The notes under the pieces are model-generated. The model worked only from the letters and a program-made list of their open reading frames with translations, ran no database searches and had not been told where the DNA came from. DNA of 64,000 bases, taken from assembly GCF_013122565.1 (NCBI RefSeq), contig NZ_CP053258.1. One strand, 5' to 3'. Both the position numbers and the translations under genes were made by a program. Below are positions 34,698 to 34,825 of the stretch, one piece after another; position 1 is the first letter of the stretch, and each line of letters starts with the position of its first letter. The stretch comes from Escherichia coli (GTDB lineage Bacteria > Pseudomonadota > Gammaproteobacteria > Enterobacterales > Enterobacteriaceae).

Positions 34698-34825
34698 AAC
34701 ATTCACGGTAGATATAAAAACGTCACAATACACCGCGCTGTTTTTACTTACTATCAATCGTTTCTAAACAAGTTTTCATCAGGTATTCTACTGATGACTT
34801 GTTATGGAAGTGTTAAGGTAAAAAG

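Follow-up and report, generated by a model that had tools for sequence, protein, structure and literature searches.

The 17-nt motif TGTTTA-gaaac-GATTGA upstream of rstA very probably represents the sole PhoP box in the sigma-70 promoter of rstAB, acting by a mechanism of the type described in Salmonella. The motif was analysed within a 64,000-nt stretch of DNA (hereafter the window), where it is supported by its sequence, its position relative to the core promoter elements, its conservation among orthologous promoters and published data on PhoP control of rstA. The box is already documented, and its confirmation adds nothing new for E. coli. The one potentially new element is a possible displacement of the box in the Enterobacter clade.

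The rstA locus and the motif in its promoter

The window forms part of the E. coli chromosome, with the gene order tus-rstB-rstA / ydgC-folM. Bases 33900-35300 match 5422 of the 5426 complete E. coli genomes, in which rstB, rstA, ydgC and folM are annotated, and in MG1655 rstA is located at 1682159-1682878. The rstA promoter was found in 5421/5426 genomes. A single genome among the 5426, that of E. coli W409 (L082, NZ_CP122499.1; locus 2501-2542), carries a deletion which begins inside the PhoP box, at approximately window position 34760, and takes the rest of the promoter as well as the rstA N-terminus; rstA is annotated as a pseudogene in this strain.

The start codon of rstA is at 34697 and the motif is located 57-73 nt 5′ of it (Table 1). 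The sequence and position given in a preliminary description of this DNA are therefore exact when read on the minus strand, and the first hexamer, there called perfect, does match (T/G)GTTTA at 6/6 positions. The second hexamer had been called degenerate. This is correct insofar as it matches the consensus at 4/6 positions, but it is also the best conserved part of the box across species. The direct repeat (T/G)GTTTA-N5-(T/G)GTTTA by which PhoP boxes are recognized is thus present at rstA, as judged by the repeat itself, the 5-nt spacer and the position weight matrix (PWM) score.

Table 1. Features of the rstA-ydgC intergenic region and associated genes (window coordinates)
Feature	Position	Strand	Remarks
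PhoP box TGTTTA-gaaac-GATTGA	34754-34770	-	Direct orientation towards rstA
Half-site 1, TGTTTA	34770-34765	-	Sequence read
Box spacer, gaaac	34764-34760	-	Exactly 5 nt
Half-site 2, GATTGA	34759-34754	-	Sequence read
-35-like hexamer, TAGTAA	34748-34753	-	Abuts box directly; 17 nt to -10; homologous to Salmonella -35
-10 hexamer, TATTGT	34725-34730	-	3′ of box, exactly 23 nt from GATTGA; homologous to Salmonella -10 TATGTT
rstA TSS	34715-34719	-	34715 from mapping; 34719 expected by analogy with Salmonella
rstA CDS, response regulator	33978-34697	-	ORF and E. coli genome annotation
rstB CDS, sensor kinase	32673-33974	-	Co-transcribed, 3′ of rstA; ORF and annotation
Conserved block, E. coli GTAGAATACCTGATG, consensus CAGCATAACGGAAG	34776-34790	-	Just 5′ of box; mean 1.16 bits
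TATTCT, candidate ydgC -10	34784-34789	+	TATGCT in other genera; 36 nt before ydgC ATG (34826)
TTTCTA, candidate ydgC -35	34761-34766	+	Would fall inside PhoP box
RstA box TACATATCGTTACA	45498-45511	-	Sole perfect TACATNTNGTTACA match in window
asr CDS	~45394-45086	-	ORF

Consensus and weight-matrix scans

Searches with the consensus KGTTTA-N5-KGTTTA, allowing up to two mismatches, returned 23 matches in the window versus 15.3 ± 4.6 in shuffled sequences, and the mismatch count alone does not set the rstA site apart from chance. The PWM scan that had been proposed as a check on the motif was performed with a matrix derived from 37 footprinted Salmonella PhoP boxes (Table 1 in Zwir 2012, PMC3335776), from which the rstA box was excluded. 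The 19-mer TTGTTTAGAAACGATTGAT scores 16.4 bits (training median: 14.0) and ranks first among the 127,964 window positions, both with all 37 boxes and with the canonical S1 subset, and second with the activating subset of boxes. Sequence simulated with the same first-order composition yields 0.18 sites of this quality per 64 kb on both strands, while the simulated expectation per 150-nt promoter strand is approximately 2e-4. Of the 16.32 bits obtained with a uniform-background matrix, 14.35 come from the half-site bases, and the composition of the spacer is thus not the driver of the score. With a score above the median of the footprinted boxes and a second half-site that is the best conserved, the motif cannot be called weak, as it was in the preliminary description. 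A count of consensus mismatches under-rates the rstA site, while a footprint-derived matrix together with phylogenetic footprinting recovers it cleanly.

The second-best PWM match in the window, CGTTTTACCTTTTATTTAT (17617-17635, minus strand; 15.8-16.4 bits), is located in the malI-malX intergenic region beside GATAAAACGTTTTA repeats. Its occurrence probably reflects chance in A/T-rich sequence, and we know of no link between this site and PhoP.

Comparison with the Salmonella rstA promoter

The rstA promoter of Salmonella contains a single PhoP box, TCGTTTAGAAAAGATTTAT (CGTTTA-GAAAA-GATTTA), over which PhoP-P produces a DNase footprint of 20 nt (Zwir 2012, PMC3335776). This box is directly oriented 23 nt 5′ of the -10 hexamer TATGTT, with the -35 hexamer TGGAAG at 17-nt spacing, an S1-mapped transcription start site (TSS) 5 nt past the -10 and a 21-nt leader. 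Expression is lost when the 17-nt box is inverted, and the alpha-CTD of RNA polymerase is required for activation in vitro (PMC3335776). In the same study, promoters of "architecture III" have one box 21-23 nt from the -10, one helical turn 5′ of its position at mgtA and phoP, the rule for PhoP activation being a direct orientation at integral helical turns (12 or 21-23 nt) from the -10 (PMC3335776).

The E. coli box, directly oriented and 23 nt 5′ of TATTGT, follows this rule of position and orientation and, with one box at 23 nt, the single-box arrangement of architecture III. The two promoters are alike in their single direct box, its distance to the -10, the poor -35 hexamer at a 17-nt spacer and the leader of about 20 nt. 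The boxes are identical at 14/17 bases (TGTTTAGAAACGATTGA versus CGTTTAGAAAAGATTTA), the E. coli/Salmonella substitutions being T/C at position 1, C/A at the last spacer base and G/T at position 5 of half-site 2, while the core hexamers differ (-10 TATTGT and -35 TAGTAA in E. coli versus TATGTT and TGGAAG in Salmonella). Comparison with documented PhoP boxes, as recommended in the preliminary description, thus identifies the rstA site as orthologous to the footprinted Salmonella box, in the same position and orientation. The mgtA, phoP, yrbL and slyB promoters (architecture I) share the direct repeat, orientation, regulator and signals with rstA. In these promoters, however, the box takes the place of the -35, at a distance of 11-12 nt to the -10, whereas the rstA box at 23 nt is one turn further 5′; mgtA furthermore has no need of the alpha-CTD, and the second half-site of rstA is weaker than in architecture I.

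The footprint, box reversal and alpha-CTD experiments belong to the Salmonella promoter and not to that of E. coli, to which we infer by analogy that the mechanism would apply unchanged. PhoQ would sense low Mg2+, acid pH or cationic peptides, leading to the phosphorylation of PhoP, and PhoP-P would bind TGTTTA-N5-GATTGA as a head-to-tail dimer 23 nt 5′ of TATTGT, hence abutting the poor -35 hexamer TAGTAA from upstream. PhoP bound here would recruit RNA polymerase in an alpha-CTD-dependent manner to a transcript predicted to start approximately 18-22 nt before the ATG, and the RstA produced would then act on its own targets, including asr.

Transcription start and core promoter

For E. coli rstA, Kim 2012 (PMC3415461, Table S1) lists a TSS at 1680165 (+, older coordinates), supported by 2 reads only. 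The accompanying 51-mer matches the window and maps the TSS to 34715. Counted from this position, the box extends from -55 to -39, the -35-like hexamer from -38 to -33 and the -10 hexamer from -15 to -10, with the ATG at +19. This TSS combines minimal read support with an unusually long 9-nt gap past the -10, and a start at approximately 34719, by analogy with Salmonella, could set the box at -51 to -35. With either TSS, the box and the -35 hexamer share no bases, the former ending directly 5′ of the latter. According to the preliminary description, a PhoP site would be refuted if the mapped TSS put the motif outside the -35 region. The box does end just 5′ of the -35, yet it is known to work there in Salmonella, and since it functions from this position the proposed rule would reject a true PhoP site. 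Overlap with the -35 is as such an invalid rejection rule for PhoP boxes.

A scan of 34600-34900 for consensus sigma-70 promoters found none, which is consistent with an activator-dependent promoter. No entry near the rstA promoter is present in the Cappable-seq supplement (PMC4782308), and no coordinate for an rstA TSS is given in the Salmonella dRNA-seq paper. A further 2-read TSS of Kim 2012, at 1680339 (-), corresponds to window position 34541 on the plus strand, inside the rstA CDS, and is assigned to ydgC with a 285-nt leader. RNA initiated at 34541 would be antisense to the promoter and 5′ end of rstA.

PhoP regulation of rstA and the RstAB-asr cascade

In the E. coli Mg2+ stimulon described by Minagawa in 2003, rstA reportedly belongs to the direct targets of PhoP and has a PhoP box, and Ogasawara is said to have described, in 2007, a PhoQP-RstBA relay in which RstA activates asr. 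This is the same cascade as that suggested in the preliminary description, from PhoPQ through RstAB to asr, with nothing different known. The cascade is established, rstA being phoP-dependent in the literature and a perfect RstA box being present at asr. The latter matches TACATNTNGTTACA, which we take to be the RstA box pattern of Ogasawara's 2007 work, and is situated 103 nt 5′ of the asr ATG, so that the RstA box of the relay is found where it belongs; asr itself is 10.7 kb from rstA within the window.

Deletion of phoPQ in Shigella flexneri reduces rstA to 0.07x, a 14-fold loss, and PhoP-P shifts a 220-bp rstA probe (PMC5775216). The probe primers map to window positions 34706-34925, box included, and S. 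flexneri is essentially E. coli at the rstA locus. Table 5 of the same paper holds no rstA site sequence, though the text names rstAB. In E. coli, deletion of phoP abolishes the effect of plasmid-borne rstAB with its native upstream region, and rstAB transcription is placed under positive PhoQ-PhoP control, with Minagawa 2003 cited (PMC13425233). Mutants in mgrB show increased rstAB, and the changes are ascribed to PhoQP hyperactivation, an attribution validated in an mgrB phoP double mutant by qRT-PCR of selected genes; the mgrB mutants also overproduce Asr (PMC10746255). A PrstA reporter gives a graded response to optogenetically set PhoP levels (PMC13215669), while acid pH raises RstA protein and rstA is called a PhoPQ-activated gene (PMC7083825). 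The activation of asr by RstA is cited in two of these studies (PMC10746255 and PMC13425233), the latter of which (2026) also describes an asr-associated small peptide gene, samT, that feeds back on RstB. Full-text literature searches for the 17-mer, its core and the reverse complements gave no match, and rstA is not mentioned in Harari 2010.

The rstA box links two signalling systems, whereby low Mg2+, acid and antimicrobial peptides sensed by PhoQ lead to increased RstA. Besides its control of asr, RstA has a reported action on csgD and ompF, and effects on acid tolerance, biofilm and virulence. The PhoP-RstA link has furthermore been tied to fitness under trimethoprim (PMC10746255).

Conservation across the Enterobacteriaceae

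The rstA loci of 80 Enterobacteriaceae species, one per species, were compared. The block GTGTAT marks the -10 in 72/81 sequences (window included) and served as alignment anchor. Upstream of it these 72/81 sequences align without gaps, with a constant 23-nt spacing from box to -10, and a MAFFT alignment of 16 genera gives the same register, with GTGTAT invariant. The -10 hexamer is TATGTT in 61/72 species, while the -35 position is TGGAAG in most other genera, versus TAGTAA in E. coli. E. coli, Escherichia sp. and E. albertii share the same 19-mer at the rstA locus.

Mean information content is 1.14 bits for half-site 1, 1.16 for the spacer, 1.61 for half-site 2, 1.44 for the -35 and 1.80 for the -10, while the values are 0.18 bits for the six bases directly 5′ of the box and 0.59 for the leader. 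Averaged over the box, information content is 1.31 bits per position, compared with 0.41 at the fourfold-degenerate third positions of rstA (72 species), and 0/24 fourfold sites reach the box mean (Mann-Whitney p = 5e-7), indicating purifying selection on the box in the orthologous promoters. The best PWM match within 150 nt upstream scores at least 12 bits in 40/80 species, versus 0/320 coding-sequence control windows, and in 45/80 species the best match is located 23 nt from the -10. Variants of half-site 1 are PhoP-compatible hexamers, namely TGTTTA (26), CGTTTA (15), TATTTA and GGTTTA.

The conserved rstA promoter is absent from the Klebsiella oxytoca group, K. indica, some Kluyvera and Cedecea. 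Either the promoter or the PhoP box is lacking at the loci L027, L029 and L032 (Klebsiella oxytoca group), L024, L035, L043, L050 and L064 (Kluyvera), L031, L038 and L067, most of which have best PWM matches of 0.7-7 bits. This suggests a loss or rewiring of PhoP control in these species, as reported for Yersinia, where rstA is outside PhoP control. Since several genera lack the box and the Yersinia gene is not controlled by PhoP, the PhoP-rstA link is not universal.

The divergent ydgC promoter region

Just 5′ of the box, a further block of conserved sequence (Table 1) may fall outside the rstA promoter proper. The hexamer TATTCT within it is likely the -10 of the divergent ydgC gene, and other genera conserve TTCCGTTATGCT at approximately 36-40 nt 5′ of the ydgC start codon. 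Because the putative ydgC -35 would be located inside the PhoP box, PhoP could also affect ydgC, a comparable effect of PhoP being known from the divergent mgtA/treR promoters. A literature search on ydgC returned no relevant data.

In E. coli, the block forms part of an inverted repeat, TCATCAG-n8-CTGATGA (34776-34797). In several E. coli strains, an IS1 insertion of approximately 776 bp splits ydgC (GlpM family; ~34826-35161), adjoining the rstA promoter.

Alternative readings of the rstA site

A chance match to the consensus, with the PhoP dependence of rstA being indirect or exerted through another site, would agree with the lack of enrichment of two-mismatch matches in the window and with an extrapolation to the 4.6 Mb genome, where roughly a dozen sites of such a PWM score are expected. 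The rstA site is, however, the top PWM match in 64 kb, found at the right promoter and in the right orientation and spacing, its conservation far exceeds that of neutral sites, the orthologous Salmonella site is footprinted and orientation-dependent, and no other site of at least 12 bits is present in the rstA upstream region. Coincidence is as such extremely improbable, and conservation, position and published data together lead us to exclude it. Slightly less remote, but still very improbable, is that the bases are kept mainly for the core promoter, through the rstA -35 and upstream contacts or through a divergent ydgC -35, with the likeness to a PhoP box being secondary. Half-site 2 and the -35 do outdo the perfect half-site 1 in information content, and the candidate ydgC -10 is 17 nt from the TTTCTA hexamer inside the box. 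Against this, the PhoP-P footprint in Salmonella spans the orthologous 20 nt and inversion of the box there kills expression, the variants of half-site 1 remain compatible with PhoP, and a dual use of these bases is itself compatible with PhoP binding.

The repeat could also be read in another register, TGATGA-aaact-TGTTTA (34781-34765), or as three half-sites acting jointly. This register passes the two-mismatch consensus search and TGATGA as a half-site reaches 3.4 bits in the window, but the full-box PWM score is 8.4-10.6 bits versus 15-16.4 for the main register, and the 5′ hexamer varies within Escherichia (TGATGC, CGATGC, TGATAC) and elsewhere reads GGAAGC or GGAACT (mean -6.5 bits). For E. 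coli, this register and the three half-site arrangement, both of which we regard as most improbable, were rejected on the PWM score and the lack of conservation. There is equally little to favour binding of the repeat by another OmpR-family regulator, such as RstA in autoregulation, instead of PhoP. Members of this family read direct repeats with a periodicity of about 11 bp and autoregulation is common in two-component systems; the rstA promoter, however, contains no TACATNTNGTTACA match at up to two mismatches, the sole perfect match being that at asr, and all expression data indicate phoP dependence. A PhoP box at the main register thus remains the preferred reading.

Possible displacement of the box in the Enterobacter clade

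Among the rstA promoters the middle hexamer hardly varies (GATTAA, with GATTGA in E. coli) and represents a fixed pivot. Escherichia, Salmonella, Citrobacter, K. pneumoniae and most other genera combine this pivot with the upstream half-site, so that 23 nt separate the box from the -10. In the Enterobacter cloacae complex, Lelliottia, Leclercia, Silvania and Huaxiibacter (L028, L030, L033, L037, L039, L040, L042, L046, L049, L052, L053, L056, L057, L062, L063, L068, L072 and L079), the upstream half-site has degenerated (TAATTT or similar), and the best PhoP-box match is GATTAA-TGGAA-GGTTAA, one helical turn downstream at 12 nt from the -10 and approximately 45-75 nt 5′ of rstA (locus position 1501). 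The downstream half-site is GGTTAA, GGTTGA or CGTTAA in this clade.

Among the 72 species, 44 have the upstream half-site only, 17 the downstream half-site only, one has both and four have neither, the two half-sites being almost mutually exclusive; approximately 1% of random hexamers score at least 4 bits. As the 17 downstream-only species form one related clade, the pattern probably reflects one or two evolutionary events. It is conceivable, if somewhat short of probable on this comparison of promoter sequences, that the PhoP box of rstA moved by half-site turnover around the fixed pivot. A literature search on PhoP binding or control of rstA in the Enterobacter clade returned no relevant data. 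If the displacement is real, one clade has turned an alpha-CTD-dependent promoter into a canonical one of the mgtA/phoP type, with PhoP control kept.
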